Shown here one piece after another: positions 20,133 to 53,095 of a stretch of 64,000 nt of DNA. The position numbers were made by a program, and so were the translations under genes. Below the pieces are notes generated by a model, which searched no databases, was not told the origin of the DNA, and saw nothing but the letters and a program-made list of their open reading frames with translations. Position 1 is the first letter of the stretch, and the number at the start of each line of letters is the position of its first letter. This stretch comes from an uncultured Clostridia bacterium (lineage in GTDB: Bacteria; Bacillota; DTU025; MWDF01), in the NCBI GenBank assembly GCA_964545975.1, contig CAZJHY010000001.1, forward strand, positions 24,094 through 88,093, given 5' to 3'.

Positions 20133-20169
20133 GGGCCGCCCGAATGATGACCGTATGGAGGTAAAGCAG

Positions 20170-20793: not shown

Positions 20794-20822
20794 GACGAAG
20801 ACAATCCGAACGGAGTGATCAT

Positions 20823-21284
20823 ATGTACAGGAAGATGGTAATAGGCTGCGACGAGGCGGCCTGTGAGCTGAAAAACGCCCTTATCGAGGTCCTTAAGAAG
20901 AAGGGAATTGAGTATGAGGACGTCGGAGTGCCGGATGCAAGCGACAAGACCTATTATCCCCTGGTGGCAGAGAAGGTGGCCGAGGCGATAATAGAAAGCG
21001 GCTATGAGAAGCACGGGATGCTCCTCTGCGGAACGGGCATCGGCATGGCCATATCCGCGAACAAGCACCCCGGGGTATTTGCCGCTGTATGCCACGACCA
21101 GTATTCTACCGAGAGGGCGAAGCTGAGCAACAACTGCAACGTCATCTGCATGGGGGCAAGGGTCATAGGGCCAGAGCTTGCCAAGAAGAACCTGGAGCAA
21201 TGGCTTGAGCTGACGTTCAAGGACGGCTCCTCGACCCCTAAGGTGGAGGCTGTGAAGGATATCGAGAAGAGGCATATGAAATGA
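20823..21284 (+). CDS. RpiB/LacA/LacB family sugar-phosphate isomerase (ribose-5-P isomerase B-like; possible tetrose-P isomerase)
   Basis: MVIGCDEAA...LLCGTGIGMAISANK with catalytic Cys-region; ~153 aa. Confidence 0.8.
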   Translation: MYRKMVIGCDEAACELKNALIEVLKKKGIEYEDVGVPDASDKTYYPLVAEKVAEAIIESGYEKHGMLLCGTGIGMAISANKHPGVFAAVCHDQYSTERAKLSNNCNVICMGARVIGPELAKKNLEQWLELTFKDGSSTPKVEAVKDIEKRHMK

Positions 21285-22075: not shown

Positions 22076-22104
22076 GGCAAGGCTTACGAAGGCGGTGTGA
22101 TGCA

Positions 22105-22776: not shown

Positions 22777-22798
22777 TCCTAAAAAGGAGGACGCACCA

Positions 22799-24271
22799 TT
22801 GTCCGACAGGCTTTTCATGGGGATAGACGTGGGCACGGGCGGAGCCAGGGTCATAGTCTGCGACGAGTACGGGTTGCCCCTGGCGGAAAGCTCGAGGCCG
22901 TTTGCCGCAGGTGCCGGCGCATCTGACATGCCCCAGGGCTGGCATCAGCAGTCGCCCGCAGCCTGGTGGGACGCGACTTCCGCATGTATAAGGCAGGTCA
23001 TGGGCTCACCCGGACTCGGCGGAAATCCTGGCAGGGTGTTCTCTGTTTCCGTCACATCCACATCAGGTACTGTGATCCCGCTTAGGGAGGATTGCGAACC
23101 GCTCTGGGATGCGGTCATGTACAACGACAGCAGGTCGTCCGCGCAGGCGGAAAGGGCGAACGAGGCGCTTAAGGAATTATGCGGGAAGCTCGCCTACAGG
23201 TTCGACACATCCTTCGGGCTTCCGAAGATGCTATGGTTCATGGACAGCAAGCCTGAGCTGTTCAGAAGGACCAGATTCTTCGTCCACGCTGGCGATTATA
23301 TTATCGGGAAGCTCTGCGGCTGCTTCGGTTTCACCGACTATTCCAACTCGCTGAAGTCTGGATACGACATCGATGAGCTGATATGGCCGAAGGAGATAGA
23401 GGAGAAACTGGGCGTCCCGGCGTCCAAACTGCCGGAAGTGCTCGCCCCGGGCACGGTAGTCGGGAAGGTCTGCGCCGCCTGCTCCGCAGAGACGGGCCTT
23501 CCGGAAAGCACCAACGTCGCGCTGGGCATGACGGACGGCTGCGCCTCGCAGATTGCATCGGGTGCCGCGTCCTTAGGCGACTGGAACACCACGATCGGCA
23601 CAACGCTTGTAATCAAGGGGGTCACCGAGAGGCTCCTCTTCGACCCGAAGGGAAGGATATACAGCCACAGGCATCCCGACGGGCACTGGATGCCAGGCGG
23701 GGCCAGCAACGTCGGCGGCGACTGCATAAGAAGCAACTTCCGCGACGATGAGCTGGATACGCTGAACGCGTCCGTGCGCCCTGAGAAGCCGACAGGCATG
23801 CTGGTGTACCCTCTGGAGAAGAAGGGCGAGAGGTTCCCGAACAGAGATCCTTTGGCAGAGGGGTTCATAATGGGAAGCCCATCAGGAAGGCCCGAGCTCT
23901 ATCAGGCCTACCTTGAGGGTGTTGCGCTGGTGGAGAAGATGTCATACGAGATGCTTCAGAGCTTGGGGGCGGCAATCGGTGACACGATCTTTGCGGCGGG
24001 AGGCGCCACGAAAAGCGAGCCATGGCTCAAGGTAAGGTCGAATATGCTCGACCGGCGCATTGCAGTCCCGGAGATTGCAGGAGGATTCATGGGAGCCGCC
24101 ATACTAGCAGCTTCCCTCTCCCATTGGGGCTCGCTCGGTGAGGCTGCCAAAAACATGGTAAAAATTTCCAAGACGATATGCCCGGACCCTGCCGCTGTCG
24201 ATGCCTATAAGGATAAGTACGGGCAGTTCATAAGAGAGATGGGAAGCAGGGGATATACCCTGGAGGGATGA
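22799..24271 (+). CDS. FGGY family carbohydrate kinase (xylulo-/ribulo-/erythritol-kinase-like)
   Basis: N-terminal GIDVGTGGARV, ~490 aa two-domain ASKHA kinase; TTG start after AAAGGAGG. Confidence 0.8.
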   Translation: MSDRLFMGIDVGTGGARVIVCDEYGLPLAESSRPFAAGAGASDMPQGWHQQSPAAWWDATSACIRQVMGSPGLGGNPGRVFSVSVTSTSGTVIPLREDCEPLWDAVMYNDSRSSAQAERANEALKELCGKLAYRFDTSFGLPKMLWFMDSKPELFRRTRFFVHAGDYIIGKLCGCFGFTDYSNSLKSGYDIDELIWPKEIEEKLGVPASKLPEVLAPGTVVGKVCAACSAETGLPESTNVALGMTDGCASQIASGAASLGDWNTTIGTTLVIKGVTERLLFDPKGRIYSHRHPDGHWMPGGASNVGGDCIRSNFRDDELDTLNASVRPEKPTGMLVYPLEKKGERFPNRDPLAEGFIMGSPSGRPELYQAYLEGVALVEKMSYEMLQSLGAAIGDTIFAAGGATKSEPWLKVRSNMLDRRIAVPEIAGGFMGAAILAASLSHWGSLGEAAKNMVKISKTICPDPAAVDAYKDKYGQFIREMGSRGYTLEG

Positions 24272-24275
24272 TGAT

Positions 24276-25673
24276 ATGAGCATTTACAAGGCCTGCGACA
24301 TAAGGGGAGTCTACCCTTCGTCGCTCGACGAGAAGACGTCATACGATATAGGAGCGGCTTTGGGGGAGATGCTCGGCCCTGTAAGCATGCTCGTCGCAGG
24401 CGACGTGAGGGTCAGCACGCCGCCTTTGAAGCAAAGCCTTATAAACGGCCTTGTGGACGCCGGATGCGAAGTAGTGGACATCGGCATGGCCCCGACCCCG
24501 GCCTTCTACTACGCGCTTCATAAGCTGGGCACCGAGTCGGGCGTGACGGTGACGGCATCCCATAATCCGGCCAAGTACAACGGCTTCAAGATAGCGCCGC
24601 ACGGGCAGCCCATGACTGAAGACGTGATGGACGACCTGAGGAAGATGGTCGAAGCTGGAGGATTCAAGCCATATGGGCAAGGGAGCGTAAGGAAGGCTGA
24701 GGTCATCGAGGATTACAAGAGATTCGTGCTTGATAAGATAGGAGAGCTAACGGGAACGAAGTGCAGCGCTCATGGTTCGAGTAATGCCCTCAAAGCCGTG
24801 GTGGACTGCGGCAACGGCTGCTACAGCACGATAGCCCCTGAAGTTCTAAGGCAAGCTGGCATCGCGGTTGAGGAGCTCTATTGCTGGGAGGATGGAACTT
24901 TCCCTAACAGGGAGCCAAACCCAGCTGTAGCTGAGAATCTCGAGGCTTTATGCGGCAAGGTCAGAGATACGGGGGCAGACCTTGGCATTGCCTTCGACGG
25001 GGACGGTGACAGGGTGGTCTTCGTGGACGAGCTGGGCAAAGTGGTCCCTAGCGACAATGCGATAGCACTTTTCGCCGGCTTCCTCCTTAAGAATCACCCC
25101 GGCTCGAAGGTGGTTTTCGACATCAAGTGCTCAAGCCTTGTGTCGGATTCGATCAAGGCGGCGGGCGGCATTCCAGTGATGGAGAAGTCAGGCCACGCTT
25201 ACATCAAGAACAACCTGCTGAGAAACGGCGCGGTTTTCGCAGGCGAGATCAGCGGGCACTTCTTCTTCCAGGTGCTCAAGGGGGATGACGGGCTGTTCGC
25301 GGCTCTTCTGATGGCCGAGATCATGATGTCGGAGGGCAGAAGCCTGGGGAAGATGGTGGAGTCGCAGCCGAAGTACTTCACTACAAGAGACTTCAGGATA
25401 CCGTTCTCGGGGAGCACGGCCGAGCTGTTCGGAAGGCTCAAAGCGCGCCTTGAGGCAAGCGGAGGCGCAAACCTGTCGTACCTGGACGGCATAAGGGCGG
25501 AGTTTTCTGAAGGCTGGGGGCTTATAAGGGCATCAGTCACTGAGCCACTGGTTACGCTGAGGTTCGAGGGGAAGTCGTTGGAGAGCCTTGATAGGATAAG
25601 GGATAGCTTCCTTGCTGCAGATGAGGACTTGCTTGATGCCGTAAGGGAGGTTTGGGCAAACCATCTTCCTTAG
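24276..25673 (+). CDS. phosphohexomutase (phosphomannomutase/phosphoglucomutase family)
   Basis: active-site TASHNPAKYNGFK phosphoserine loop. Confidence 0.85.
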   Translation: MSIYKACDIRGVYPSSLDEKTSYDIGAALGEMLGPVSMLVAGDVRVSTPPLKQSLINGLVDAGCEVVDIGMAPTPAFYYALHKLGTESGVTVTASHNPAKYNGFKIAPHGQPMTEDVMDDLRKMVEAGGFKPYGQGSVRKAEVIEDYKRFVLDKIGELTGTKCSAHGSSNALKAVVDCGNGCYSTIAPEVLRQAGIAVEELYCWEDGTFPNREPNPAVAENLEALCGKVRDTGADLGIAFDGDGDRVVFVDELGKVVPSDNAIALFAGFLLKNHPGSKVVFDIKCSSLVSDSIKAAGGIPVMEKSGHAYIKNNLLRNGAVFAGEISGHFFFQVLKGDDGLFAALLMAEIMMSEGRSLGKMVESQPKYFTTRDFRIPFSGSTAELFGRLKARLEASGGANLSYLDGIRAEFSEGWGLIRASVTEPLVTLRFEGKSLESLDRIRDSFLAADEDLLDAVREVWANHLP

Positions 25674-39245: not shown

Positions 39246-39279
39246 GAGCCCCGTTCAAGATACTGAGAACGAAAGCTTA

Positions 39280-39311
39280 CCGGCCCTCCTAAGCAGGGCC
39301 GGTTTCTTGTT
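39280..39311 (+). terminator. rho-independent terminator
   Basis: CCGGCCCT CCTAAGC AGGGCCGG followed by TTTCTTGTT. Confidence 0.75.
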
Positions 39312-39590
39312 AAGATCGCACAAGATTTTCCCTTGGTAGGACCAAGGCGGGAAGCTTTCTGCGATCAAGCAGTCAAATGATTGTTGTAATCGCCAGCGCG
39401 CGGCCTTCAGGCTATTTAAGTGCAGATATATGAAGTTGACTGAAATGAGTCTGGAATAATTGTTTGCTGATATGAGTATGTGAAATAAATATTTATGTTT
39501 GAGAAGCGCGAAATATGGTGTAGGATTTAGTTGGTTGTCATACCATCATACAAAGCAAGCCTAAATGCTAATGAAGGTTATGGTGGAACG

Positions 39591-40286
39591 ATGAGGATAC
39601 AGCCAATAGAACGTAGTACCCTGCCGGATGCCATTATCGAGCGGATTAAAGGAATGATCATCGACGGGAATCTCAAACCCGGCGACAAGCTCCCTCCCGA
39701 AAGGGATCTGGCTGCCAGCATGCAAGTAGGGAGAGCCACTGTAAGGGAGGCTCTAAAGGCGTTATCTTCAATCGGTCTCCTGCAAAGAAGCACCGAAGGG
39801 ACATATATAAAAGAGAAGATCGAGTACTTCCAGCAACCTCTTACATACAGCCTAATAATGGACCACATAACGCTCAAGGAGCTAATCGAGGCTAGAAGGA
39901 TACTTGAAGTCAAGATTTCTGAATTGGCAGCATTAAGGGCTACTGACGAAGAAATCGCTGGCATAGAAGATGCTGTTATGATACAGAAGATGCACCCGAG
40001 AGATACAGATTACCTCTTCTATGAGGCCGACTTGAAGTTTCATCTGACATTAGCAGCTGCTGCAAAGAATAGGGTTCTCAGCGAGACCATTGTCTGTACA
40101 AGGCATTTGTTGTTTAAGGCGCAGCAGGCAGTGGGTAAACTCCCGGGAATGACAGATAAAGCCCTAGTTAGTCATTCAGCCCTCTTGGAAGCAATCAAGA
40201 GCAAAGATGCCGAGAAGGCCAGAAGCGTAATGGAAGATCATATAGATGACGTGGAAGAAGGCTTCAGGAAGCTCAACTTGATTTAG
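39591..40286 (+). CDS. GntR family transcriptional regulator (FadR/FCD subfamily)
   Basis: N-terminal wHTH (ERDLAASMQVGRATVREALKAL) plus C-terminal all-helical FCD-like domain. Confidence 0.8.
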   Translation: MRIQPIERSTLPDAIIERIKGMIIDGNLKPGDKLPPERDLAASMQVGRATVREALKALSSIGLLQRSTEGTYIKEKIEYFQQPLTYSLIMDHITLKELIEARRILEVKISELAALRATDEEIAGIEDAVMIQKMHPRDTDYLFYEADLKFHLTLAAAAKNRVLSETIVCTRHLLFKAQQAVGKLPGMTDKALVSHSALLEAIKSKDAEKARSVMEDHIDDVEEGFRKLNLI

Positions 40287-40482: not shown

Positions 40483-41451
40483 ATGAGTGGGATCAAGAAA
40501 GTGCTCGTTACAGACTACGTATTCCCCAACTTAGATCCGGAGAAGGCGATCATTGGAGCTGCTGGCGGAGAAGTCATATTCGCCGGAAAAGACGCCGATG
40601 ATGCCAAGATCTTGGAGCTTGCCAAGGACGCGGATGCAATCCTCAACTGCTACAAGAAGATACCTGCCGAGCTTTACTCAACTGCAAGTAAGTGCAAGCT
40701 CATCGTAAGATACGGCATCGGCACAGACACCATAGACATCCCAGAGGCCACGAAGCACCATATTGCGGTGAGCAATATGCCCGACTATTGCATAGACGAG
40801 GTTTCAGACCACGCTTTGACACTCATACTAAGCAGCATAAGGAAGATCACCACTGCCAACAAGCTTATCAAGAGCGGAACTTGGAGCCTCGGTCCTTTGA
40901 AGCCGATAAGAAGACTTAAGACCCTCACGCTTGGTTTGCACGGCTTCGGCCGCATCCCGAGGATGGTAGCTGAGAAGGCGAAGTCATTCGGGTTTAAGAT
41001 CATCGCCTGCGATCCGTACATTAGCAAGGAGTTGGCCGATAAGATGGGAGTCCAGACGGTAAGCTTCGATGAGCTTTGCGCAATGTCGGACGTCATATCG
41101 ATACATGCCCCCCTTACGAAGGAGACCAGCGAGATATTCAACGGAGAAGCTTTTGCAAAGATGAAAGACGGTGTAGTGATAGTTAACACAGCAAGAGGCG
41201 GGCTTATAAAAGAAGCCGACCTGGTTGAGGCACTTAAGTCTGGCAAAGTCGGGGCTGCTGGCTTAGACGTAACCAATCCCGAGCCACCGGCAAAGAACAA
41301 TCCGCTATTCGACTTCGATAATGTGACCTTCACACCGCATGAGGCATGGTATAGCGAGGAAGCGTTGGTAGAGCTACAGAACAAGGCAGCTGGCGAAATT
41401 GCCCGCTCACTTAAGGGAGAACCTCTCAAGTACCAACTCAATAAGCTCTAG
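40483..41451 (+). CDS. D-isomer-specific 2-hydroxyacid dehydrogenase (PGDH/CtBP-like)
   Basis: NAD-binding GLHGFGRIPRM, catalytic R...E...H triad region (TPHEAW). Confidence 0.8.
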   Translation: MSGIKKVLVTDYVFPNLDPEKAIIGAAGGEVIFAGKDADDAKILELAKDADAILNCYKKIPAELYSTASKCKLIVRYGIGTDTIDIPEATKHHIAVSNMPDYCIDEVSDHALTLILSSIRKITTANKLIKSGTWSLGPLKPIRRLKTLTLGLHGFGRIPRMVAEKAKSFGFKIIACDPYISKELADKMGVQTVSFDELCAMSDVISIHAPLTKETSEIFNGEAFAKMKDGVVIVNTARGGLIKEADLVEALKSGKVGAAGLDVTNPEPPAKNNPLFDFDNVTFTPHEAWYSEEALVELQNKAAGEIARSLKGEPLKYQLNKL

Positions 41452-41462
41452 GAAGGGTGCAG

Positions 41463-42677
41463 ATGTATAAGACTGCCTGGAGAATTGCGCCTAGGGAGTA
41501 TCCCGGGGTGCCCAATATTAGAGAGGCCGTCAAAGAAGCTCTAAGGAAGCCTTTGGGGATTGGCCTTGCTGAACTGGTCAAGCCTGGCAACAAAGTAGCG
41601 ATTGCCGTGGATGATCTTACCAGGCCTACACCACAGGCGGAGCTTCTACCCGTCATCCTAGATGAGCTGGCAATGCTGGGCATCGACGAAAAGGACATAA
41701 CAATTATCATCGGGCTCGGTGCGCACAGGCGCATGAGCAAGGCAGAGATCGAGACCCGTTTCGGGGCTGCAGCGCAGAGGGTAGGCGCAATAATCAACCA
41801 CGATGTGGAAGACTGTATAGCGATAGGAAGGACCTCAACGGGTGGCGATATTGCCGTTAATAGGATTTTCTGTGAGGCTGATGCCAAAATTGCGGTTGGT
41901 TGCATTCTGCCCCACATATATGCGGGGTGGAGCGGCGGCGCAAAAATGATTCAACCTGGAATATCCAGCGTGAAGACCACAACGCACGTACACAGAATTG
42001 CCAATTTGCACCTTTACGAGATACTCGGCAATACCGAGAACCTCGTGAGAATTGAAATGGAACAGATAGCAGCACTTGCTGGTCTGAAATTCATTATCAA
42101 TGTCGTGCTCAATGACAAAAACGAAGTTATCGCCGTCGTCGCTGGGGACACAGTGGAGGCTCACAGGAAGGGCGTCGGCAAAGCCGAGAAGGTTTACGGT
42201 TGGAACGGCTTGAAACCCGTGGACGTAGCGGTAGCGTACGCACCTGGTGTAGCAACAGACCTCTGGCAAAGCGCAAAGAGCCTTACGGTCGGTGCGATGG
42301 CAATCAAGCAGGGTGGAACTGTGGTGCTAGTCGCAGCCTGCCCCGAGGGGATTGCGCCTGGGCACCCGATAATAAAGGAATTGGGAACAGCCTCTTTCGA
42401 AGAGGTGCTGTACAAGGTAGATAATGGGCTCTTGGAAGATACGGTAGGGGCGTTGGTCCATATGACCATAGCCAAATGCCGGGAAAAAGGCAGGGTGATA
42501 CTAGTGTCATCCGGCATATCAAAACAAGAGGCAACCTGTCTGGGAATGGAGTCAGCAGCCGATGTGGAAGAGGCATTGAGAATGGCCGTCAGCCGTTACA
42601 ATGTTGCGCCTGAGGTCGGCTTCATAGAGTGCGCTGGCGAGTTGTCTATTTCAATTAAGGAGGAATACTGCAAATGA
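41463..42677 (+). CDS. LarA-like (lactate racemase family, DUF2088) 2-hydroxyacid racemase/epimerase
   Basis: N-terminal DUF2088-like organisation, GLGAHRRM His motif, WSGGAKM lysine region, HVH; ~400 aa. Confidence 0.65.
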   Translation: MYKTAWRIAPREYPGVPNIREAVKEALRKPLGIGLAELVKPGNKVAIAVDDLTRPTPQAELLPVILDELAMLGIDEKDITIIIGLGAHRRMSKAEIETRFGAAAQRVGAIINHDVEDCIAIGRTSTGGDIAVNRIFCEADAKIAVGCILPHIYAGWSGGAKMIQPGISSVKTTTHVHRIANLHLYEILGNTENLVRIEMEQIAALAGLKFIINVVLNDKNEVIAVVAGDTVEAHRKGVGKAEKVYGWNGLKPVDVAVAYAPGVATDLWQSAKSLTVGAMAIKQGGTVVLVAACPEGIAPGHPIIKELGTASFEEVLYKVDNGLLEDTVGALVHMTIAKCREKGRVILVSSGISKQEATCLGMESAADVEEALRMAVSRYNVAPEVGFIECAGELSISIKEEYCK

Positions 42678-43924
42678 GCGAATGGAAAAAGGAAGAGCTA
42701 AACGGCAAACCTTGGTTCGACAATGAGAAATTCTGGGGATCCCCGCATAACTACTCGCCCAGTATCACGAAGCTTCTACCTAAGAGCGTCTATATCCATG
42801 ACGTGACTCTCCGGGACGGCGAGCAGACCCCGGGAGTGGCATTCAAAGCTGACGAAAGAATAGTTATCGCCGAAGCCCTTAACGAATTGGGAGTGGCGAG
42901 AATCGAAGCCGGGATGCCCATAGTCTCCAAGGATATCGCCAACGGCATAAAGAAGCTCGTCAATATGAACCTCAAGTCGCAGGTAGTCGCCTTCGCCAGA
43001 GCACATAAGGACGACATCAATGCCTCTCTCGACTGTGGTGTTAAGGCAATCGTAGTAGAGCATACAGTAAACCCGTACCTTTGCAGATGGGGCTATGACC
43101 TCACAGAGGACAAGGTAATCGAGAGGCTCATCACCAGCGTCAGGATGGCTAAGGACAATGGTCTGCATACAACGTTCATGGGTTGGGACTTCTTCAGAGC
43201 CCCGCTCGATTTCTCCAAGAAGATCTACACAGAAGTAGTCAAGAACGCACATCCCGACGCCCTTACATTAGTAGACACCCTCGGCGTTGCCACACCGGCA
43301 GCAGTCCAGGAGACCTTCGTCGAGTTCAGGAAGATGTTCCCCGATATGGTGCTTGAGTTCCACGTGCATAACGACTATGGTATGGCAGTAGGCGCAGTCC
43401 TCGCAGCAGTGATTGGCGGCGCAAACGGCATCCACACCGCAATGAACGGCATAGGCGAGAGGACCGGCAACGTTGCGACAGAGGAAGTCTGTATGGCCCT
43501 TGAAATGCTCTGGGGCATAAAGACCGGCGTAGACACCACCAAGTTCATGTATGTCAGCAAGATAGTGGAGGAGATCTCCAAGTTCAAGCTCGCCAAGAAC
43601 AAGCCCATAGTCGGCGAACACCTCTTCGATATCGAATCCGGCGTTGTTACCCATATCGTCAACGAGATGAATAAGCAGGGCTTCAAGCCTGTTATGACAC
43701 CGTTCACACCCGAAATGGTTAATCAGAAGCCCGTCCGTTTCGTCCTTGGCAAGGGATCAGGAAAGGTCACCATTCTACAGCATTTGGACAAGCTTGGTAT
43801 CAAGTGCACTGATGAGCAGGCAGACGAGATAACCGAAGAAGTCAAGGCCTACGGAAGAGTCATGAAGGCTCTACTCAGCGATGACGACCTCGTAAGAATA
43901 ACTAAGCGCATCCTGGCAAAGTAA
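42674..43924 (+). CDS. HMGL-like (pyruvate carboxyltransferase/DRE-TIM) family aldolase/synthase
   Basis: DVTLRDGEQ, FHVHNDYGMA, LVDTLG motifs. Confidence 0.75.
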   Translation: MSEWKKEELNGKPWFDNEKFWGSPHNYSPSITKLLPKSVYIHDVTLRDGEQTPGVAFKADERIVIAEALNELGVARIEAGMPIVSKDIANGIKKLVNMNLKSQVVAFARAHKDDINASLDCGVKAIVVEHTVNPYLCRWGYDLTEDKVIERLITSVRMAKDNGLHTTFMGWDFFRAPLDFSKKIYTEVVKNAHPDALTLVDTLGVATPAAVQETFVEFRKMFPDMVLEFHVHNDYGMAVGAVLAAVIGGANGIHTAMNGIGERTGNVATEEVCMALEMLWGIKTGVDTTKFMYVSKIVEEISKFKLAKNKPIVGEHLFDIESGVVTHIVNEMNKQGFKPVMTPFTPEMVNQKPVRFVLGKGSGKVTILQHLDKLGIKCTDEQADEITEEVKAYGRVMKALLSDDDLVRITKRILAK

Positions 43925-43959
43925 GGGTCCAGCTAAAAAAGAAAGGAGTCTAAAAAAGA

Positions 43960-45099
43960 ATGAAGCTGAACAGAATTCTAGTTGCATTCTCAATCCTGGC
44001 GCTAATGATGGTAGCGACAGTAGGAGCAGCAGCTCCGAAGACTTACAAAATCGCCCATCTATCGCCACTGACCGGCTCCGCATCATCCTACGGCTACTAC
44101 ATGGTAAACGCCGCCAAGATGGCCGTTGAGGAAATCAACGCCAAAGGTGGAGTCAACGGAGTAATGCTGGAGTACATGGAAATCGATGAGACTTCCAACT
44201 CGGCTCAAGCCATTGACGCAGCTTACAAGGCAGTCGCATGGGATCCGCTAGTAATACTAGGCCCCAACCGCTCCGGCGGTGTACTTGCCGCAGAGTTCGT
44301 ATGGAAAGAGGCCAAGATCCCCACAATAACCGACGGAACGAGCGCTGAGACAACTAGGAAGGGCAACCCCTATACTTTCAGGATGCAGATCTCCTCTGAG
44401 TATTGGATCCCGTTGCTCGTCCGTACGGCCGTTGAAGTATACAAGTCGAAGAAGATTGCCGTCATGTACGGCCTCAATGACTATTCCAAGGCCAACTGGG
44501 TTGCCACTGAACCCGCGATGAAGAAGTACGGCATCACCCCAGTAACGGTTCAGACGTTCAACGACGGCGACCAGGACTTCACAGCCCAGCTGCTGAAGGT
44601 AAAGGCCTCCGGCGCCGATGCTCTGTTCGTATACTCCTACACGCCTGAAATCGGCATGATCCTCAAGCAGAGGGCCGAGCTTGGTATGCCTAACCTGCTC
44701 GTATTCAGCGAGCGCGCGGCAAGCGTCCCCTCAGTTGAGGACCTCGCTGGCACCAAGAACTATGAGGGTCTCGTCTGCACAACCACCCTGTCCCCCGGAG
44801 ACCCAAGGCCAGGCGTGCAGAAGTTCATTAAGGACTACGAAGCCAAGTATAAGCACATCGTATCCTCGACGCATATCAATCACTACGACTCCGTATACAT
44901 CGTAGCTGACATTATCAAGAGGGTCGGTCCCGACCGTGAGAAGATCAGGCAGGAACTCGCCAAGCTGGATTACGTAGGCGTACTAGGCCACTATGTAGCC
45001 GATAAGGAAGGCAACTTCGTACACACCATGTACACCCAGGTCCGCGAGAACGGCAAGTGGAAGCTGCTCTTGACGGAGGAGTATCCGGTAGTAAGGTAG
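43960..45099 (+). CDS. ABC transporter substrate-binding protein, LivJ/LivK family
   Basis: signal peptide; type I PBP. Confidence 0.8.
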   Translation: MKLNRILVAFSILALMMVATVGAAAPKTYKIAHLSPLTGSASSYGYYMVNAAKMAVEEINAKGGVNGVMLEYMEIDETSNSAQAIDAAYKAVAWDPLVILGPNRSGGVLAAEFVWKEAKIPTITDGTSAETTRKGNPYTFRMQISSEYWIPLLVRTAVEVYKSKKIAVMYGLNDYSKANWVATEPAMKKYGITPVTVQTFNDGDQDFTAQLLKVKASGADALFVYSYTPEIGMILKQRAELGMPNLLVFSERAASVPSVEDLAGTKNYEGLVCTTTLSPGDPRPGVQKFIKDYEAKYKHIVSSTHINHYDSVYIVADIIKRVGPDREKIRQELAKLDYVGVLGHYVADKEGNFVHTMYTQVRENGKWKLLLTEEYPVVR

Positions 45100-45113
45100 T
45101 CTAGTAACAGTCG

Positions 45114-45137
45114 CCCGGCGCGGGTAACCGCGCCGGG
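45114..45137 (+). other. GC-rich intercistronic hairpin after SBP gene
   Basis: CCCGGCGCGG GTAA CCGCGCCGGG 10-bp stem. Confidence 0.55.
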
Positions 45138-45169
45138 TAACCTTGCTTATCGTAAGGAGGCTTAAGCCC

Positions 45170-46057
45170 TTGAACCTCACAACTTTGATTCAATTGGTTA
45201 TCAACGGACTGGCCATGGGCCTTCTCTATGCGCTTCCCGCGCTGGGCATCTCCCTTATCTGGAACGCCTCCGGGCTTTTCAACTTCGCTCAAGGGGACCT
45301 GCTTACATTTGGGGCATACATCATGCTATCGCTCTTCAGCAAAGTGGGCCTGCCTTACGTGCTGTCCTTCCTGCTCACATTTCTGCTTTTGGGTTCGATA
45401 GGCTACATACTCAGCTCAATCTACTTCTACCCGATGTTCCGGGCTAGGATAAACCCCCAGATCATACTAATAGGCACGGTCGCCCTTTCTGTATTCATAA
45501 GGAATGCGATCCTTCTAATCTGGGGCCCCCATGCTCAGTCCTACCAGAACCCGTTCGGCTCGTCCGCCATCCAGTTTGGCGAGGTATATGTCATGCCGCA
45601 CATTTTCGGCATATTCATAATAGTCACCCTGCTGTTGGGCGCTTTACAGCTGTTCCTCAGGGGCACGATCACAGGCATCGGCATGAGGGCGGTCGCCCAA
45701 AGGCCCGTAGCCTCGTCTCTGATGGGAATAAAGAACAACAGGATGGTGGCCCTCACATTCTTCATGTCGACAGGCATAGCTGCTGTGTCAGGCATATTGA
45801 TCGCCCCAATACTTCCTCTGACGCCTGAAACCGGCGGCATGATAGCCATCAAGGCCTTCGCTGCGGTACTTATCGGAGGCCTGGGAAGCTTCTCAGGAGC
45901 GCTCGTAGGAGGCATAGCCGTCGGCATAACCGAGATGGTTTTTGCCACCTTGCTGGCTCCGACCTACAAGGACGTCTTCATATTCATAGTCCTTGCGATA
46001 TTCCTGGTATTAAGGCCCGGCGGCATATTCAGGGCCCAGATATCAGAGAAAGTGTAG
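45170..46057 (+). CDS. ABC transporter permease, LivH family
   Basis: TTG start after AGGAGG; LivH-like N-terminus LVINGLAMGLLYAL. Confidence 0.75.
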   Translation: MNLTTLIQLVINGLAMGLLYALPALGISLIWNASGLFNFAQGDLLTFGAYIMLSLFSKVGLPYVLSFLLTFLLLGSIGYILSSIYFYPMFRARINPQIILIGTVALSVFIRNAILLIWGPHAQSYQNPFGSSAIQFGEVYVMPHIFGIFIIVTLLLGALQLFLRGTITGIGMRAVAQRPVASSLMGIKNNRMVALTFFMSTGIAAVSGILIAPILPLTPETGGMIAIKAFAAVLIGGLGSFSGALVGGIAVGITEMVFATLLAPTYKDVFIFIVLAIFLVLRPGGIFRAQISEKV

Positions 46058-46067
46058 GAGGGGTCAC

Positions 46068-47021
46068 ATGCGTGCAGTGTTAAAGTTTTTGAAGGACAAA
46101 GCATTCTTCGCCCTGGCGCTGTTCCTTGTGATCGCACCTTATGTGATGCAGCGCTACCAGTTCTACATCCTGCAGCGCGGGGTGCAGAACTCGATACATG
46201 TGCTGGGCTTGGTCATACTAGTAGGCTTCACGGGCCTTCTGTCATTGGGTCATGCGGGCTTCGTGGCGCTGGGGGCCTACGCCTACGGGATTGCAATGGT
46301 GAAGCTGGGGCTTCCTGTATGGGCGGCGCTCATTATAGCGCCCCTATTCTCTATGCTCATCAGCATGTTGCTGGCATATCCTTCCTTCAAGCTATCGGGC
46401 CCGTTCCTAGTGGTTATCACGATAGCCTTCGGCGAGATAGTGAGGATATTGATACTTAACCTGCAGGGCATCACAGGAGGTCCTTACGGACTGACGGGGT
46501 ACAAAGTGCTCTTCACAAACTCCAAGGTGCTCTACTACGTCATGCTCGGAACATTGTTCCTGCTTGCCCTGTTTGTTCGGAGGCTCGGCAACTCCAGAAT
46601 CGGACTTGCTTTCAAGGCAATCAAGGAGGACGAGGTCGCAGCAGACGTCATGGGCGTAAACGTCAGGAAGCACAAGCTCATGGCATTCATGCTAAGCTCG
46701 GCGCTGGCCGGCCTTTCAGGCGTGTTCCTTGCGAGCCTTACAAGGTACATCAACCCAGACTCGTTCACGTTCGCGGAGAGCTCGACCTACCTTCTGATGG
46801 TGGTCATGGGCGGTATGCAGAATGTGTTCGGCGCGATAACCTCGACCATAGTCATCACAGCGCTCCCTGAGGTGTTGAGGTTCCTTGCGCGCAGCAGGCT
46901 GCTTATATACTCACTAACGCTTCTGGTATATCTCAGGATGTACGGCAACAAGGGCGGCCTACTGCAGATGTTCGGCATTAAGCCCAAGAAGGCGAATATA
47001 AATACAGGTTCGAGGAGCTGA
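46068..47021 (+). CDS. ABC transporter permease, LivM family
   Basis: multi-TM. Confidence 0.75.
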   Translation: MRAVLKFLKDKAFFALALFLVIAPYVMQRYQFYILQRGVQNSIHVLGLVILVGFTGLLSLGHAGFVALGAYAYGIAMVKLGLPVWAALIIAPLFSMLISMLLAYPSFKLSGPFLVVITIAFGEIVRILILNLQGITGGPYGLTGYKVLFTNSKVLYYVMLGTLFLLALFVRRLGNSRIGLAFKAIKEDEVAADVMGVNVRKHKLMAFMLSSALAGLSGVFLASLTRYINPDSFTFAESSTYLLMVVMGGMQNVFGAITSTIVITALPEVLRFLARSRLLIYSLTLLVYLRMYGNKGGLLQMFGIKPKKANINTGSRS

Positions 47022-47025
47022 GACT

Positions 47026-47808
47026 ATGGAACTACTAAGGACTGAGGGCATAGTCAGGAAGTTCGGCGGCCTTGTGGCTGTCAGCGAACTTTGCGTGAAC
47101 GTCAACGAGGGCGAGATAGTGGCACTTATCGGTCCCAACGGTTCAGGAAAGACCACAGCCCTGAACCTCATCACGGGCATCTACTCATGCGATGAGGGAA
47201 AGATACTGCTGAAGGGCCAGGAGATCCAGAGCGCGGCCCCCTTCTCGATAACGCAGAAGGGAATAGCCAGGACCTTCCAGAACATAAGGATACTCGAGTC
47301 CCTCTCCGTTTTCGACAACGCGAGGCTTGGAACCATATTCTCCACGAAGTCCAACCTGCTGGACATCGCCCTTGAGACGCCAAGGTTCAGAAGGGAGAAG
47401 AAGGCGGTGACAGAGGAGGTCAACAAGGTCCTGGATTTCGTGGGACTTCTGGACCAGGCGAATGAGATTGCCGCCAACTTGCCTTACGGCAAGAAGAGGG
47501 CGCTTGAGATCGCAAGGGCGCTTGTAACGAAGCCCAACCTGCTTCTTCTGGACGAGCCCGCGGCTGGTCTGAATACGCAGGAAGTCTACAACCTAATGGA
47601 GCTCATTAAGAAGATAAGAGGCCTTGGCATCACCATATTCCTGGTAGAGCATAGGATGGAGCTAGTCGGCGGCCTCGCTGACAGGGTCTACGTGCTCAAC
47701 TACGGCAAAAAGATCTGCGAGGGCCCGTTCTGCGACATCAAAGAGGACACCTCCGTCATCGAGGCGTATCTCGGCAAGAGGAGGCAGGTCGATGCTAAAG
47801 GTAGATAA
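47026..47808 (+). CDS. ABC transporter ATP-binding protein, LivG family
   Basis: GPNGSGKTT, LLLDEPAAGL. Confidence 0.85.
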   Translation: MELLRTEGIVRKFGGLVAVSELCVNVNEGEIVALIGPNGSGKTTALNLITGIYSCDEGKILLKGQEIQSAAPFSITQKGIARTFQNIRILESLSVFDNARLGTIFSTKSNLLDIALETPRFRREKKAVTEEVNKVLDFVGLLDQANEIAANLPYGKKRALEIARALVTKPNLLLLDEPAAGLNTQEVYNLMELIKKIRGLGITIFLVEHRMELVGGLADRVYVLNYGKKICEGPFCDIKEDTSVIEAYLGKRRQVDAKGR

Positions 47809-48517
47809 GGTCGTAGTCGCCTACGGCGTAGCCCCGGTAATCCATGAAGTCTCGCTTACCGTCCCCGACGGCAAGATCGTAACGCTCCTCGGTGCCAACG
47901 GCGCCGGCAAGTCTACGATACTGAAGACCATATCCGGCCTCTTGAAGCCCATAAGCGGAGAGGTAACATTCGACGGAGCGGTAATATCAAAGGAGCCGCC
48001 CGAAGCGATAGTAAAAAGAGGTATAGCTCACGTTCCGGAGGGAAGGCTCGTGTTCCCCGGGCTCACTGTGCTTGAGAACCTGAAGATGGGATCCTACGTG
48101 ATAAGGCACAAGCGGAAGAACCTCAAAGAGAACTTAGAAAAGGTGTATGAGCTGTTCCCCAGGCTACTTGAGAGGAAGAACCAGACCGCCGGTACGCTAT
48201 CAGGCGGAGAGCAGCAGATGCTCGCCATCGGCAGGGGCCTCATGAGCGAGCCTAAGCTTCTTATGCTTGACGAGCCGTCGCTGGGGCTTGCTCCCGTAAT
48301 CATCGACAGCATCATCGACAAGATAATCGAGATCAACAAGCAGGGGATGACCATCCTCCTGATAGAGCAGAACGCGCATCTGGCCCTTGAAGTCTGCGAC
48401 TATGGTTACTTGCTTTCTGTCGGCAACATAATGATGCACGGCGAGAAGCAGAAGCTGGTGAGCGAAGAGGGCATGATTAATGCCTATCTGGGCGGAGGCA
48501 AGCAGGAGGCCGTCTGA
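47792..48517 (+). CDS. ABC transporter ATP-binding protein, LivF family
   Basis: GANGAGKST, LSGGEQQML, LMLDEPS. Confidence 0.85.
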   Translation: MLKVDKVVVAYGVAPVIHEVSLTVPDGKIVTLLGANGAGKSTILKTISGLLKPISGEVTFDGAVISKEPPEAIVKRGIAHVPEGRLVFPGLTVLENLKMGSYVIRHKRKNLKENLEKVYELFPRLLERKNQTAGTLSGGEQQMLAIGRGLMSEPKLLMLDEPSLGLAPVIIDSIIDKIIEINKQGMTILLIEQNAHLALEVCDYGYLLSVGNIMMHGEKQKLVSEEGMINAYLGGGKQEAV

Positions 48518-49704
48518 TGAAGATCCTTATATGCAATGTGGGTAGCACTTCATTGAAGTACCGCCTGTTCGAGGACACTGCATGGGAATGCATATCAAAG
48601 GGCAAGGTGGAGAGGATCGGCAGCGATAGCTCCACCTTCCAGTTTTCATTGCTCAATGGGGCAGTCCAAAGCGGCACAGTCGCGATAACGGACTATGAGT
48701 CCGCGATATCCCTGATGCTAGAGCACCTGGTGGGGGCTGCAGCTCCGCTAAAAAGCCTGGAAGAGCTGTCTGCCGTAGGCTTCAAGGTAGTGCACGCTAA
48801 GGGCATAACTGGCGTGCAGCTGCTGGATGAGCGGGTCATAAAGGCCATGGAGGACTACAACTCCATAGCGCCTGCGCATAATCCCCCCTATATAAAGGCC
48901 ATTAAGATATTCTCCAAACTTCTTCCCGGAGTGCCGATGGTGGGAAGCTTCGAGACCGGCTTTCATTCCAGGATGCCGAGATGCGCATATCTCTACGGCA
49001 TACCCTATGAGTGGTATGAGAAGTACGGTATAAGAAGGTACGGATTTCACGGGGCATCGCACCAGTACGTATCGGAGAGGATCACGGCGCTTCTCGGTCA
49101 CAGGCCAAAGAGGCTTATTACATGCCACCTTGGCGGAAGCTCATCGCTTTGCGCCATCAAGGACGGCGTATCTATAGATACTAGCCTTGGCTTCTCTCTT
49201 CAAAGCGGCGTCGAGCACCAATACAGGTGCGGGGACATCGATTCATTTATCATGCCGTTTCTTATGAAAAGCGCAGGTATGAGCGAGGAAGATATCGAGA
49301 TTGGCATGACGAAGAAGGGCGGCTTAGCCGGAATCTCCGGGCTGTCGGGAGACATAAGGGACCTTGAGGAGGCTTCGGGGGCCGGCAACGACCGCGCCCT
49401 TGCGGCGCTCGAAGTGTTCGCCTATGAGGTGAAGAAATACATAGGGGCATATGCCGCGGCTTTAGGAGGCGCCGATGCCATCTGCTTTGCAGGCGGAATC
49501 GGTGAAAACGGTTCAAAGATGCGCGCAAGGATTCTGAAAGGTATGGAATACCTGGGTATCGAGATAGACGAAACAAAAAATTACGAGCTCAAGGGCGAAG
49601 GGGAGATTTCTGCGCCTGAATCCAAAGTGAAGGTCTTCATAATCCCGACCGATGAAGAGCAGATAGTAGCTAAGCTAACAATAAACCTTGTAAAAGGGGC
49701 ATAG
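48517..49704 (+). CDS. acetate/propionate/butyrate kinase family protein
   Basis: N-terminal ILICNVGSTSLKY ASKHA motif; ~395 aa; start overlaps LivF stop (TGATGA). Confidence 0.75.
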   Translation: MKILICNVGSTSLKYRLFEDTAWECISKGKVERIGSDSSTFQFSLLNGAVQSGTVAITDYESAISLMLEHLVGAAAPLKSLEELSAVGFKVVHAKGITGVQLLDERVIKAMEDYNSIAPAHNPPYIKAIKIFSKLLPGVPMVGSFETGFHSRMPRCAYLYGIPYEWYEKYGIRRYGFHGASHQYVSERITALLGHRPKRLITCHLGGSSSLCAIKDGVSIDTSLGFSLQSGVEHQYRCGDIDSFIMPFLMKSAGMSEEDIEIGMTKKGGLAGISGLSGDIRDLEEASGAGNDRALAALEVFAYEVKKYIGAYAAALGGADAICFAGGIGENGSKMRARILKGMEYLGIEIDETKNYELKGEGEISAPESKVKVFIIPTDEEQIVAKLTINLVKGA

Positions 49705-49732
49705 TTGCCGGTTGTCCGGTAGAGGAGCAAAA

Positions 49733-50020
49733 ATGGACAAGCGTACATTGATGATTAATGAGGAAGACAACGTTGCGACTGCTATGCAAAAGATCATGCC
49801 AGGAGACAAGCTGGACGGTTACGTCGCCCTTCAGGTGATACCGTTCGGGCACAAGGTTTCGGTAGTCCCGATTATGAAGGGAGAGCACATTATCAAATAT
49901 GGCGAAGTGATAGGGGTCGCCAGCGTCGATATAAGAGCTGGTGAACACGTGCATATTCACAACATGGATGGGATCAGGGGAAGAGGGGATGTTTACTCAG
50001 AACCGGGTCATAAGGAGTAG
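49733..50020 (+). CDS. SAF-domain small subunit of split UxaA/GarD/SuyA-like dehydratase/lyase
   Basis: ~96 aa SAF-like beta protein immediately upstream of UxaA-C-terminal-domain gene. Confidence 0.6.
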   Translation: MDKRTLMINEEDNVATAMQKIMPGDKLDGYVALQVIPFGHKVSVVPIMKGEHIIKYGEVIGVASVDIRAGEHVHIHNMDGIRGRGDVYSEPGHKE

Positions 50021-50023
50021 ACA

Positions 50024-51196
50024 ATGAATCAAAATACAAACCAGTTCATGGGGTACCTCAGGGAGAACGGCACAGTCGGCGTTAGGAACTACGTTTTAAT
50101 CCTACCTACCGTAGTTTGCGCCAATGCCACTGCAAGATCGATTGCTTCCATGGTGCCGGGCAGCACCGTTGTAACTCACCAGCACGGTTGTGCCCAGCTA
50201 GGAGCGGATTTTGCGCAGACACAAAGGACGCTTATTGGCTTAGGAAAGAACCCTAATGTCAGATCTGTACTTGTTGTGGGGCTCGGCTGCGAGAACATGG
50301 AAGGTGAGGTTGTCGCGGTTTCAATTGCAACAACTGGCAAGAAAGTAGAGCTCATCACCATACAGAAGCTTGGCGGCACATTGAAGGCAACCGAGCTGGG
50401 AGTTCGCATCGCATCTGAGATGATGCGATCAAAGTCAACCGACTTAAGGGTCCCAGTAGGAATAGAGAAGCTTACGCTCGCACTCGAGTGCGGGGCCTCT
50501 GATTCGACTTCGGGAATAACAGCTAACCCCGCAACCGGGATTGCTGTGGATATGCTTGTCGAAAAGGGAGGCTCAGCCATACTCTCAGAGACTCCGGAAA
50601 TGATAGGAGCGGAACACATTCTGGCCAAGAGATGCTTCTCGATAGTAGTTAAAGACGCCTTGTACGGTATTATCGGAGATGCTGAGAGGGGCATAAGTGG
50701 CATGGGCGTAGACGTTAGAGGCTCGAATCCGACACCTGGGAATATTGCAGGTGGCTTAAGCAGCATAGAGGAGAAGTCCCTTGGTTGCATCTACAAGGCT
50801 GGGTCTGGCAAGATAATGCAGGTAGTCAGATATGCCGAGACACCCACCGAGAAGGGTCTTGTTATAATGGACACACCAGGTCATGATGTAGAATCGATGA
50901 CAGGGATGGCTGCAGGTGGTGCTCAGGTTTGCGTTTTCACGACCGGCCTTGGCGCAGTAACAGGATTTCCTATAATGCCTGTCATCAAGGTATGCGGCAA
51001 TCCTAGGACAAGCGCCTTCATAAGCGATAACATTGATATCGACGCGGGCCAAGTGCTAGATGGCAAGGCTAGCCTCCAGCAGGTGGCGGAGCAGATTTTA
51101 TGCGAGGTCATGGAAGTCTCGTCGGGCAAAGCCACCAAGGCTGAGAGCCTCGGATATGCAGACATCGCGATTAACAGAATCGGCCCTACTACATGA
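50024..51196 (+). CDS. large subunit of split UxaA/GarD/SuyB-like (altronate dehydratase family) dehydratase/lyase
   Basis: ~390 aa; GD_AH_C-like pattern; 4-bp gap to small subunit. Confidence 0.6.
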   Translation: MNQNTNQFMGYLRENGTVGVRNYVLILPTVVCANATARSIASMVPGSTVVTHQHGCAQLGADFAQTQRTLIGLGKNPNVRSVLVVGLGCENMEGEVVAVSIATTGKKVELITIQKLGGTLKATELGVRIASEMMRSKSTDLRVPVGIEKLTLALECGASDSTSGITANPATGIAVDMLVEKGGSAILSETPEMIGAEHILAKRCFSIVVKDALYGIIGDAERGISGMGVDVRGSNPTPGNIAGGLSSIEEKSLGCIYKAGSGKIMQVVRYAETPTEKGLVIMDTPGHDVESMTGMAAGGAQVCVFTTGLGAVTGFPIMPVIKVCGNPRTSAFISDNIDIDAGQVLDGKASLQQVAEQILCEVMEVSSGKATKAESLGYADIAINRIGPTT

Positions 51197-52215
51197 TTGT
51201 AGATAAGGAAATGAGGGATTCTTCGGAAAGGTACAGAATGCAGAAGTTCAAGAAATGGGTCGAAGAGAACGGCTTGAGGTTCGCTTTCTTCAGAAGCTGC
51301 GATATCGACATGGCGGTGTCTAGGGTACGCAACCTTGCTCCTGCCATAGACCAGGTGATCTTCAATAGGTATTTCGAAAGCTTCAAGACGTCTGGCGAGC
51401 TTGGGCTTTCAGCGGAAGAGCTGGCTCTCATTATCTACATCCCCAAGGAAGTCCGCACTGTTCAGTTCGAACTCTGCGATAAACGATATGAGGCGAGCAT
51501 CCCACCGCCCATATACTGCGATGAACCTTCCGATATCGATGAGTTCGACAAGGCGGTGAACGATAGGCTCGACGGTAAAGCAAGACCAGTAAGATTGCCC
51601 ATGAAATCATTGAGCGTGCTGCTTGGCATCTCACGCTATGGCAGGAACAACATCACCTATATCGATGGATTAGGAAGCCTTTTCATCATGCGATCTTATG
51701 CGGTGAAGGGGCTTGATGAGAACGATATCGAAATCAGCAAGCCGCTGGGTGGGTTCATCGATGAGGACTTGCAATGCCCGGAGTGCGATGGCTGTTTCGC
51801 ATGTATTGCCTCATGCCCTACAGGCGCTATCTCAAACGATCGTTTCCTATTGCATGCTGAGAGGTGTATGACCTACCATAACAAGAATGACAAGGAATTT
51901 CCAGCATGGATTGACGGAAGCTCTCACAATTGCATCTTCGGATGCCTTCAATGCCAAGTCTGCTGCCCGATGGATTTTGGCAAGCTAATCAAGAAGCCAT
52001 CGGGAGTAGTTTTCGATGAAGATGAGACCAGGTACCTTGTAGGAATCCACGAGACTTCTGAAGTCAAGGCCATCGAGGCAGGAATTGAAAGTAAGCTCGC
52101 AAAACTGGGCATAGCATATCTGAGAGAGTTGATGCCAAGAAACCTAAGAGCCCTCTTCGCAAGCGGGAATCTTATAAACACGGAGCCAAAGTTGGAGGAA
52201 ACTGATGCCAAGTAA
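51193..52215 (+). CDS. QueG-like (epoxyqueuosine reductase/reductive-dehalogenase-like) 4Fe-4S protein
   Basis: LGISRYGRNNITYIDGLGS...CPECDGCFACIASCPTGAI matches QueG cluster region; second CxxCxxCC site. Confidence 0.5.
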   Translation: MIVDKEMRDSSERYRMQKFKKWVEENGLRFAFFRSCDIDMAVSRVRNLAPAIDQVIFNRYFESFKTSGELGLSAEELALIIYIPKEVRTVQFELCDKRYEASIPPPIYCDEPSDIDEFDKAVNDRLDGKARPVRLPMKSLSVLLGISRYGRNNITYIDGLGSLFIMRSYAVKGLDENDIEISKPLGGFIDEDLQCPECDGCFACIASCPTGAISNDRFLLHAERCMTYHNKNDKEFPAWIDGSSHNCIFGCLQCQVCCPMDFGKLIKKPSGVVFDEDETRYLVGIHETSEVKAIEAGIESKLAKLGIAYLRELMPRNLRALFASGNLINTEPKLEETDAK

Positions 52216-53095
52216 AAGAAGTCAACAACTTCTAGGCTACCTTTTCATAATGTTCACTGGGGTGATGTTCGGCTCGTTGGAAGTCGCTTCCAAGCTTGTG
52301 CCCCATATAAACCCATTCCAGATGAACTTCGTTCGTTTTTTGATCGGAGGGCTAGTCATCATACCGTTCGCATTGTACGAAGTTAGATCCAGGAAGCTCA
52401 AAGTAAGCTTCGGAGATATCGTCTATTCAGGGTTCCTGGGGTTGATCTTGGTCGGTTTCTCCATGACGCTCATGCAGGTAGGAATATCGAAAGTGCCTGC
52501 ACCTCAGGTAGCTTTTATATTCGCCTCTAACCCGATAATCATCGCTGTGCTCGCGGCCTTCATATTAAAGGAGAAGCCGGGGTTGTTCACCTTCATATTC
52601 ATAGCACTGGGCATGACAGGCATAGTGTTCATTGTCGACCCCTTCCAGAAATCATTCAACCTGGACGTGTTATACCCTATAGCGGCTGTGACCCTTATGG
52701 GGACCTATATAGTGCTTGCTAGGAAGCTGTCCATGAGGCTTGGAAGCCTATATGTAACTGGTACGGCGATAATCCTGGGAACAATAGGATTAGGCATATT
52801 CAACCTGATTATCGGAAAGGGGTTATTCTCTGACATAAGGCCTGCGGATGTTCCTATCGTTTTCTTCATGGGGGCGTTCATCTCAGGGCTTGCGTACGTT
52901 ACCTATTTCAAGGGTATGGAGTTCATTAACACGAGCACGGGCAGCATTACATTCTTTTTAAAGGCCATAACTGCGACTGTACTATCCATATTGGTACTGA
53001 AGGATACCCCTGCGTTGTCCACGTACATAGGTGCAGCTTTCATCTTGGCCGGTACCGTGGTCCTAATAATCTCAAACAACCGTGCAGTTCGGTAA
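52205..53095 (+). CDS. DMT superfamily (EamA) transporter
   Basis: 10-TM EamA pattern; overlaps upstream gene. Confidence 0.75.
   Translation: MPSKRSQQLLGYLFIMFTGVMFGSLEVASKLVPHINPFQMNFVRFLIGGLVIIPFALYEVRSRKLKVSFGDIVYSGFLGLILVGFSMTLMQVGISKVPAPQVAFIFASNPIIIAVLAAFILKEKPGLFTFIFIALGMTGIVFIVDPFQKSFNLDVLYPIAAVTLMGTYIVLARKLSMRLGSLYVTGTAIILGTIGLGIFNLIIGKGLFSDIRPADVPIVFFMGAFISGLAYVTYFKGMEFINTSTGSITFFLKAITATVLSILVLKDTPALSTYIGAAFILAGTVVLIISNNRAVR

Follow-up and report, generated by a model that had tools for sequence, protein, structure and literature searches.

Two adjacent genes for a small SAF-domain protein and a large protein of the altronate dehydratase family can be read as a (2R)-sulfolactate sulfo-lyase (SuyAB) or as a split sugar-acid dehydratase of the UxaA/GarD type. 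Which of these is encoded at positions 49733-51196 of a 64,000-nucleotide contig stretch from an uncultured Clostridia bacterium (GCA_964545975.1, CAZJHY010000001.1; the whole stretch is referred to below as the window)? We find that the large subunit falls outside the clade of SuyB proteins and that orthology to UxaA or GarD is not supported. The two proteins probably form a heteromeric hydro-lyase that depends on iron and belongs to the UxaA/GarD superfamily, and would catalyse a single step in the breakdown of a 2,3-dihydroxy-carboxylate encoded by a 13-gene operon under GntR control. On its own the pair is unremarkable, one of many in a very common and uncharacterised group of split dehydratases; the pathway around it appears to be undescribed. 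The two genes are as follows.

49733-50020 (+): small subunit, a SAF (beta-clip) protein of 95 residues and 10.5 kDa (Pfam SAF, E = 6.9e-8)
50024-51196 (+): large catalytic subunit of 390 residues and 40.4 kDa with GD_AH_second and GD_AH_C domains (Pfam, E = 1.9e-39 and 1.9e-90)

A sequence-only reading of this DNA had described SAF and altronate-dehydratase-family genes 3 bp apart, which the open reading frames and Pfam matches bear out. The small frame starts with the ATG at 49733, 6 nucleotides downstream of an AGAGGAG Shine-Dalgarno sequence. The large frame opens with the ATG at 50024, after a gap of exactly 3 bp, and its AAGGAG Shine-Dalgarno sequence overlaps the stop of the small frame. 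Earlier size estimates of about 390 residues for the large subunit and about 10 kDa for the small one stand, as does the 3 bp spacing, whilst those of about 96 residues and about 42 kDa are corrected to 95 and 40.4. An identical 95-residue small-subunit product is already recorded in NCBI.

Together the two proteins carry the domains of the UxaA/GarD superfamily (COG2721), SAF, GD_AH_second and GD_AH_C, in the order found in GarD. The small protein covers positions 2-78 of the GarD model (NCBIfam TIGR03248) and the large protein positions 106-493. As the two jointly span the model, the pair corresponds to a GarD/UxaA-type protein cut in the inter-domain linker. The sole PDB match of the large subunit was E. 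coli GarD (6u7l, E 2e-45). The split pair was seen again in relatives at loci L002 (95% identity), L018 (91%), L001 (63%) and L019 (61%), with the small subunit conserved at 93% in L002 and 47% in L001. Among the best 120 database relatives of the large subunit, every one has the two large-subunit domains alone, and lengths are nearly always 382-394 residues. Recurrence in relatives excludes a sequencing artefact, and the split is genuine.

The large subunit also retains the four superfamily cysteines. Its C32, C56, C89 and C156 fall in the cysteine columns of E. coli UxaA and GarD and represent the set known as C134/C173/C208/C276 in the D-arabinonate dehydratase C785_RS13685. These residues have been described as conserved across the superfamily "except for sulfolactate sulfo-lyase" and proposed to form a rubredoxin-like iron site (Watanabe 2019, PMC6336799). 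The same work describes alpha-proton abstraction followed by beta-elimination for D-arabinonate dehydratase, which serves here as a mechanistic model. This Herbaspirillum huttiense enzyme and the D-idonate dehydratase of Paracoccus belong to the same superfamily and share the proposed iron-site cysteines, but are fused proteins of aerobic proteobacteria acting in non-phosphorylative pentose and L-glucose pathways; we liken them to the window pair by description, not by sequence. Two extra cysteines of the large subunit, C303 and C324, are conserved only in its own subclade (window, P0001, P0002 and L019) and are missing from every other superfamily member examined.

Comparison with authentic SuyB separated the two groups. 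As bait we took the P. pantotrophus row of the alignment in the supplement of Watanabe 2019 (PMC6336799), the optical character recognition copy of which is unreliable, with duplicated rows, and serves for tblastn fishing only. Searched against annotated plasmids, it yielded three loci with real SuyB genes. At the Paracoccus versutus locus a GntR gene, small and large subunits and a "putative sulfate exporter" reproduce the published suyAB-suyZ arrangement. The Cupriavidus pinatubonensis locus carries hpsN-hpsO, an MFS transporter and a dehydrogenase with suyAB, and in Rhodococcus suyAB adjoins an aldehyde dehydrogenase and an Ldh-family (ComC-type) gene. In neighbour-joining trees (200 bootstraps), these three SuyB proteins formed a clade with 100% bootstrap on a long branch without the window protein, which clustered with its 95% and 61-63% relatives (86-88% bootstrap) and is 36-40% identical to the SuyB proteins. 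The assayed SuyB of Desulfovibrio sp. DF1, for which 397 BLAST hits above 70% identity were reported, mostly in proteobacteria (PMC6278857), probably belongs to the same tight clade.

The cysteine columns of the superfamily gave the same division. SuyB proteins (n = 3) have I/L, R, a gap and C at the four columns where the window protein has C, C, C and C, so that C32, C56 and C89 are precisely the residues replaced in SuyB. This signature agrees with the published exception for sulfolactate sulfo-lyase (PMC6336799). The other split proteins examined keep all four cysteines, save two divergent Halarchaeum paralogues. Sulfonate or sulfite genes do occur beside SuyB at loci L008, L009 and L015, whereas no SuyZ/TauE exporter, ComC/SlcC, HpsN/SlaB, Xsc or Dsr gene was found among the window genes scanned. 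Clade, signature and gene neighbourhood thus all set the pair apart from SuyAB, and what the two share is separate-subunit architecture, which is not specific.

That architecture is widespread outside SuyB. The pair sits in a very large radiation of split "UxaA family hydrolase" proteins in Bacillota, Synergistota, haloarchaea and others, whose members are typically 52-57% identical to the window large subunit, and thousands of non-SuyB relatives are likewise split. Split relatives with informative neighbours lie in sugar-acid clusters, not sulfonate clusters. On a Priestia megaterium plasmid, a split pair (51%) is found among genes for alpha-ketoglutaric semialdehyde dehydrogenase (KGSADH), FAH-family and DHDPS-family proteins and an MFS transporter. 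On a Bacillus sp. S3 plasmid, one (46%) belongs to a cluster for L-fucose that also encodes GH95, FucU, SDRs, an amidohydrolase and an FAH-family protein. The latter cluster matches the heteromeric L-fuconate dehydratase predicted from gene context (Watanabe 2019, PMC6336799), exemplified by Paraburkholderia mimosarum A19U_RS0100650/55. Like the window pair, this predicted enzyme has split SAF and large subunits, retained cysteines and a sugar-acid setting, but the window lacks GH95, FucU, lactonase and SDRs, and the precedent is itself one of context. Given the L-fuconate and Priestia precedents, split architecture does not indicate SuyAB. The sequence-only reading had rightly called the two-subunit architecture SuyAB-like, the gene layout being the same and the subunit sizes similar, and had left the choice between SuyAB and split UxaA/GarD open. 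Architecture indeed cannot settle function, non-SuyB relatives being split as well.

Two further arrangements were noted among split relatives. On the Halarchaeum plasmid (L012, 7989-10608) a small-subunit gene has a large-subunit gene on either side; of the two large paralogues, one is without conserved cysteines one to three and the other without the fourth. In L035 (17283-18434) the SAF small subunit forms a single protein with a xylose-isomerase-like TIM-barrel (AP_endonuc_2) domain, which is encoded by a separate neighbouring gene in L037, L041 and L058. The fusion and the neighbourhood suggest a functional link between the AP_endonuc_2 enzyme and the dehydratase.

The window pair belongs to a run of 13 genes on the + strand (40483-53095, spacing -17 to +43 nucleotides), which follows a regulator gene and a 196-nucleotide gap. 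Besides the pair, the cluster comprises the following.

39531-40286 (+): GntR/FCD-family regulator at the head of the cluster (Pfam GntR and FCD), kept in L018 and L019
40483-41451 (+): D-isomer-specific 2-hydroxyacid dehydrogenase family protein (Pfam 2-Hacid_dh and 2-Hacid_dh_C; sub-threshold on the PGDH and glyoxylate reductase models of NCBIfam)
41457-42677 (+): LarA-like nickel-pincer 2-hydroxyacid racemase/epimerase homologue (Pfam Lar_N and LarA_C; below all NCBIfam LarAH cut-offs)
42674-43924 (+): DRE-TIM metallolyase, annotated "isopropylmalate/homocitrate synthase-like" (all NCBIfam synthase models below cut-off)
43960-48517 (+): Liv/HAAT-type ABC importer of five genes
43960-45099 (+): its binding protein (Pfam Peripla_BP_6)
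45143-46057 and 46068-47021 (+): its permeases (BPD_transp_2 in the equivalent L002 genes)
47026-47808 and 47792-48517 (+): its ATPases (ABC_tran in the equivalent L002 genes)
48517-49704 (+): acetate/propionate-kinase family protein (Pfam, TIGR00016)
51193-52215 (+): Fe-S protein of 340 residues with a double [4Fe-4S] motif, resembling epoxyqueuosine reductase (QueG) (Pfam Fer4_16)
52205-53095 (+): EamA/DMT-family membrane transporter, the last operon gene (Pfam EamA, two repeats)

Gene order is kept in L018 (a 91-96% relative, an uncultured Firmicutes metagenome-assembled genome), in L002 and in the more distant L019, in which the DRE-TIM protein is 78% identical. In L001 the SAF and large-subunit genes come straight after the DRE-TIM gene (79%), and TctABC and TAXI-TRAP carboxylate transporters adjoin. 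The start of the Fe-S gene overlaps the large-subunit stop (ATGA), indicating translational coupling, and the EamA gene overlaps the Fe-S gene by 11 nucleotides. QueG (5d08) matches residues 197-264 of the Fe-S protein only, its N-terminal 190 residues matching nothing; the gene is present in L002 and L018, and an AAT-family gene takes its place in L019. A terminator-like hairpin is found at 39279-39303, upstream of the regulator gene. Save for this hairpin, promoter and terminator scans were no richer than shuffled sequence, and an Rfam scan of the window returned no riboswitch or other RNA.

The subclade of the pair shows consistent linkage to the LarA-like epimerase, the DRE-TIM protein and the divergent acetate-kinase homologue. 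The DRE-TIM protein keeps RDGEQ, DTxG and HxHN(D/E), the metal and 2-oxo-acid site, and its closest structure is an archaeal homocitrate synthase. In methylthioalkylmalate synthase (MAMS), E227A/D and H388A/D/E/Q variants have no activity, and isopropylmalate synthase (IPMS) shares the conserved Glu-Tyr-His arrangement (PMC11532901). In the window DRE-TIM protein, the equivalent of Glu227 is an invariant Trp171 ("GWD"), the His388 column is Val with a non-conserved H/D two residues on, and Tyr399 is not kept. With these Claisen residues lost, the protein probably does not catalyse a Claisen condensation of acetyl-CoA. Scanning of metagenomes and local tblastn gave 91 loci of this branch (L019-L105). 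Glu was found at the catalytic-site position in none of the 91, being replaced by Trp, Ile or Val, and the branch has no conserved His at the general-base position. None of the 91 loci adjoins leuBCD, and many have genes for sugar-acid dehydratases, LarA homologues, acyl kinases or Ptb as neighbours. The members of the branch annotated "isopropylmalate/homocitrate synthase" are probably not synthases. We likewise rejected the window protein as a true synthase, its catalytic residues being gone and LeuB/C/D neighbours missing.

The partners of the Trp-type proteins point to a different role. Across 44 such loci, counted without removing duplicates, we found a split UxaA pair in 11, an ILVD/EDD dehydratase in 9, a LarA homologue in 12, an acyl kinase in 15 and a Ptb-type phosphotransacylase in 6, and LeuB/C/D in none. 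A dehydratase was also present in 9 of the 12 loci carrying a LarA homologue. The DRE-TIM gene stands directly upstream of the SAF and large-subunit genes in L041 and L043 as well as in L001. The dehydratases adjoining it fall into at least three separate clades, all with four cysteines. ILVD/EDD enzymes, which have an unrelated fold and the same net reaction, fill the same place in sister clusters, and this argues for a step from a 2,3-dihydroxy acid to a 2-oxo acid. The substitution is the strongest argument both for a dehydration step and for its position before the DRE-TIM protein.

From these data we infer the type of reaction, the order of the steps and the class of substrate. The compound imported by the ABC system would be a 2,3-dihydroxy-carboxylate, perhaps an aldaric acid or another small sugar acid. 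The LarA-like enzyme may equilibrate the C2 epimers so that both reach a stereospecific dehydratase. By analogy with D-arabinonate dehydratase, the pair would abstract the proton alpha to the carboxylate and eliminate the hydroxyl at the beta-carbon, giving a 2-oxo-3-deoxy acid. The DRE-TIM protein would then act on the 2-oxo acid, most plausibly by cleaving C3-C4 via a metal-bound pyruvate enolate to release pyruvate. For a tartrate substrate the reaction may amount to oxaloacetate decarboxylation, and for a longer sugar or aldaric acid to a retro-aldol cleavage. The 2-hydroxyacid dehydrogenase may handle the second fragment or the redox balance, and the acyl kinase would form ATP.

The LarA homologue is closest to the malate racemase Mar2. 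A His/Gln-Lys pair marks malate racemases, and LarA homologues have known epimerase activity on glycerate, 2,3-dihydroxybutyrates, 2,3-dihydroxyisovalerate and arabinarate (PMC11770544). The homologue in the window has Leu-Val at the Mar2 His-Lys position, in a stretch aligned with only moderate confidence, and on this specificity pair we rejected it as a malate racemase. The di-/tricarboxylate transporters of L001 and the Mar2-like epimerase hint at an aldaric substrate, which is a guess; the amino-acid-like binding protein and the hydrophobic LarA pocket argue against it.

The kinase, a full-length acetokinase with an altered pocket, has the acetate kinase of Methanosarcina as its closest match. 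It has GFKVVHAKG where E. coli TdcD has GHRIAHGG (canonical GHRxxHGG), the Arg of which we take to be the catalytic Arg91 of the Methanosarcina enzyme. A second stretch reads SLQSGVEHQYRCGD compared with TPLEGLMMGTRSGD in TdcD, that is LQSG..YRCG instead of PLEG..TRSG. DRE-TIM-linked kinases of other lineages (L019, L021 and L078) share these changes partly or fully. Such shared substitutions suggest that the kinases of DRE-TIM loci form a dedicated subfamily of non-acetate acyl kinases.

Several points weigh against a hydro-lyase step in 2,3-dihydroxy-carboxylate catabolism. Sequence gives no substrate, neither the subclade nor the split radiation has an assayed member, and our literature search found no biochemical study of a split UxaA-family form. 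The roles of the DRE-TIM protein and the kinase are ones that we infer, and the altered kinase pocket is not accounted for by a simple acetate-forming end step. The closest solved structures to the ABC binding protein are branched-chain amino-acid binders, not sugar-acid binders. Other relatives of the pair stand alone, or lie beside a KdgT permease and sigma-54 regulator (C. difficile and E. albertii) or PLP (pyridoxal-phosphate) enzymes and amidohydrolases. With contexts this mixed, specificity across the radiation is evidently diverse.

In another account, the operon would encode an undescribed anaerobic pathway for 2,3-dihydroxy or aldaric acids, with the pair as its dehydratase and the Claisen-less DRE-TIM protein and divergent acetokinase, in some lineages with Ptb, at its core. 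The DRE-TIM protein would cleave the 2-oxo acid or a 4-oxo derivative to an acyl-CoA or acyl-phosphate, from which the kinase would harvest ATP. The recurrent linkage to kinase and Ptb genes fits a DRE-TIM reaction of this kind, though we regard the proposal as speculative and rather unlikely to be correct in this form. If true, it would be an energy-conserving counterpart to the hydrolytic 2,4-diketo-3-deoxy-acid route of aerobes.

A replacement of LeuCD or aconitase was also considered, with the IPMS-like enzyme joining acetyl-CoA to a 2-oxo acid to give a 2-alkylmalate, which the split enzyme would dehydrate. In several lineages the synthase-like gene closely adjoins the SAF and large-subunit genes, and a DHO_dh-like gene, possibly an enoate reductase, recurs close by. 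To our knowledge, the substrates of ILVD/EDD enzymes are all 2-hydroxy acids with a leaving group at C3. Known UxaA/GarD substrates are likewise all of this type (PMC6336799). LarA homologues follow the dehydratase, not a dehydrogenase, and the IPMS-like protein is without the Glu-His-Tyr needed for acetyl-CoA condensation (PMC11532901), making this replacement very unlikely.

Similarly improbable, and slightly more so, is an ordinary altronate dehydratase in split form (KEGG "uxaA1/uxaA2"), or a galactarate dehydratase, serving hexuronate or hexarate catabolism. JGI and NCBI call relatives "altronate dehydratase large subunit", all four cysteines are kept, and GarD is the best match both as a model and as a structure. 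E. coli GarD and UxaA have the same three collinear domains, but are single polypeptides of 495-523 residues. Identity of the large subunit over the shared part is 32% to GarD and 35% to E. coli UxaA, rising to 42% for an Azospirillum UxaA adjoining uxaC, and the window protein branches apart from both UxaA proteins in the tree. On the GarD equivalog model TIGR03248, the large subunit scored 194.6 bits and the small subunit 42.5 bits, far under the cut-off of 730.85. No uxaB, uxaC, exuT, kdgK, kdgA, garL, garR or garK was found among the window genes scanned, nor were such hexuronate or aldarate genes seen beside the pair in the relatives' loci examined. Low identity, a sub-threshold score and the missing neighbours leave orthology to UxaA or GarD unsupported, so the split UxaA/GarD option of the sequence-only reading did not survive the profile and tree checks. 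The names given to relatives look like homology-transferred labels.

The SuyAB option of that reading is the least probable. SuyAB (EC 4.4.1.24; Paracoccus pantotrophus, Cupriavidus pinatubonensis and Desulfovibrio sp. DF1) resembles the window pair in its SAF and GD_AH genes, with similar sizes and a small gap, very probably works by a like abstraction of the alpha proton and elimination of a beta-leaving group, with Fe2+ required, and has candidates in Firmicutes (PMC6278857). A sulfo-lyase supplied with (2R)-sulfolactate by the LarA-like protein and 2-hydroxyacid dehydrogenase, with EamA exporting sulfite or sulfonate, is nonetheless extremely improbable for a protein outside the SuyB clade, without its signature and with none of its gene neighbours among the window genes scanned, and would leave the conserved DRE-TIM and kinase partners unexplained.

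Reading the pair as a superfamily hydro-lyase removes a tempting mis-annotation. Annotation often calls split SAF and UxaA pairs "sulfolactate sulfo-lyase" or "altronate dehydratase", names that then enter metagenome inventories of the sulfur cycle and of pectin degradation. The signature C-C-C-C versus I/L-R-gap-C provides a simple separator of true SuyB from the split dehydratases, a much larger set. A module widespread in anaerobes emerges as well, made up of a LarA-like epimerase, a split UxaA or ILVD dehydratase, a Claisen-less DRE-TIM protein and a divergent acyl kinase, the annotations of which are probably wrong.

Elsewhere in the window, positions 1-39300 are dense with more uptake and catabolism units. 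In one, an aminotransferase gene and a DHDPS-family gene accompany a second ABC system of the Liv type; another pairs a TAXI-TRAP system with a DHDPS-family gene; and a third, conserved in L018, encodes an MFS transporter and a class II aldolase besides an amine-oxidase-like flavoprotein. A sugar or sugar-acid cluster at 13181-25673 (+) encodes an ABC transporter, metallo-beta-lactamase, RpiB, TIM, class II aldolase, FGGY kinase and phosphomutase, together with a form-IV RuBisCO-like protein (18876-20132) adjoining a UPF0261/Tm-1-like protein.

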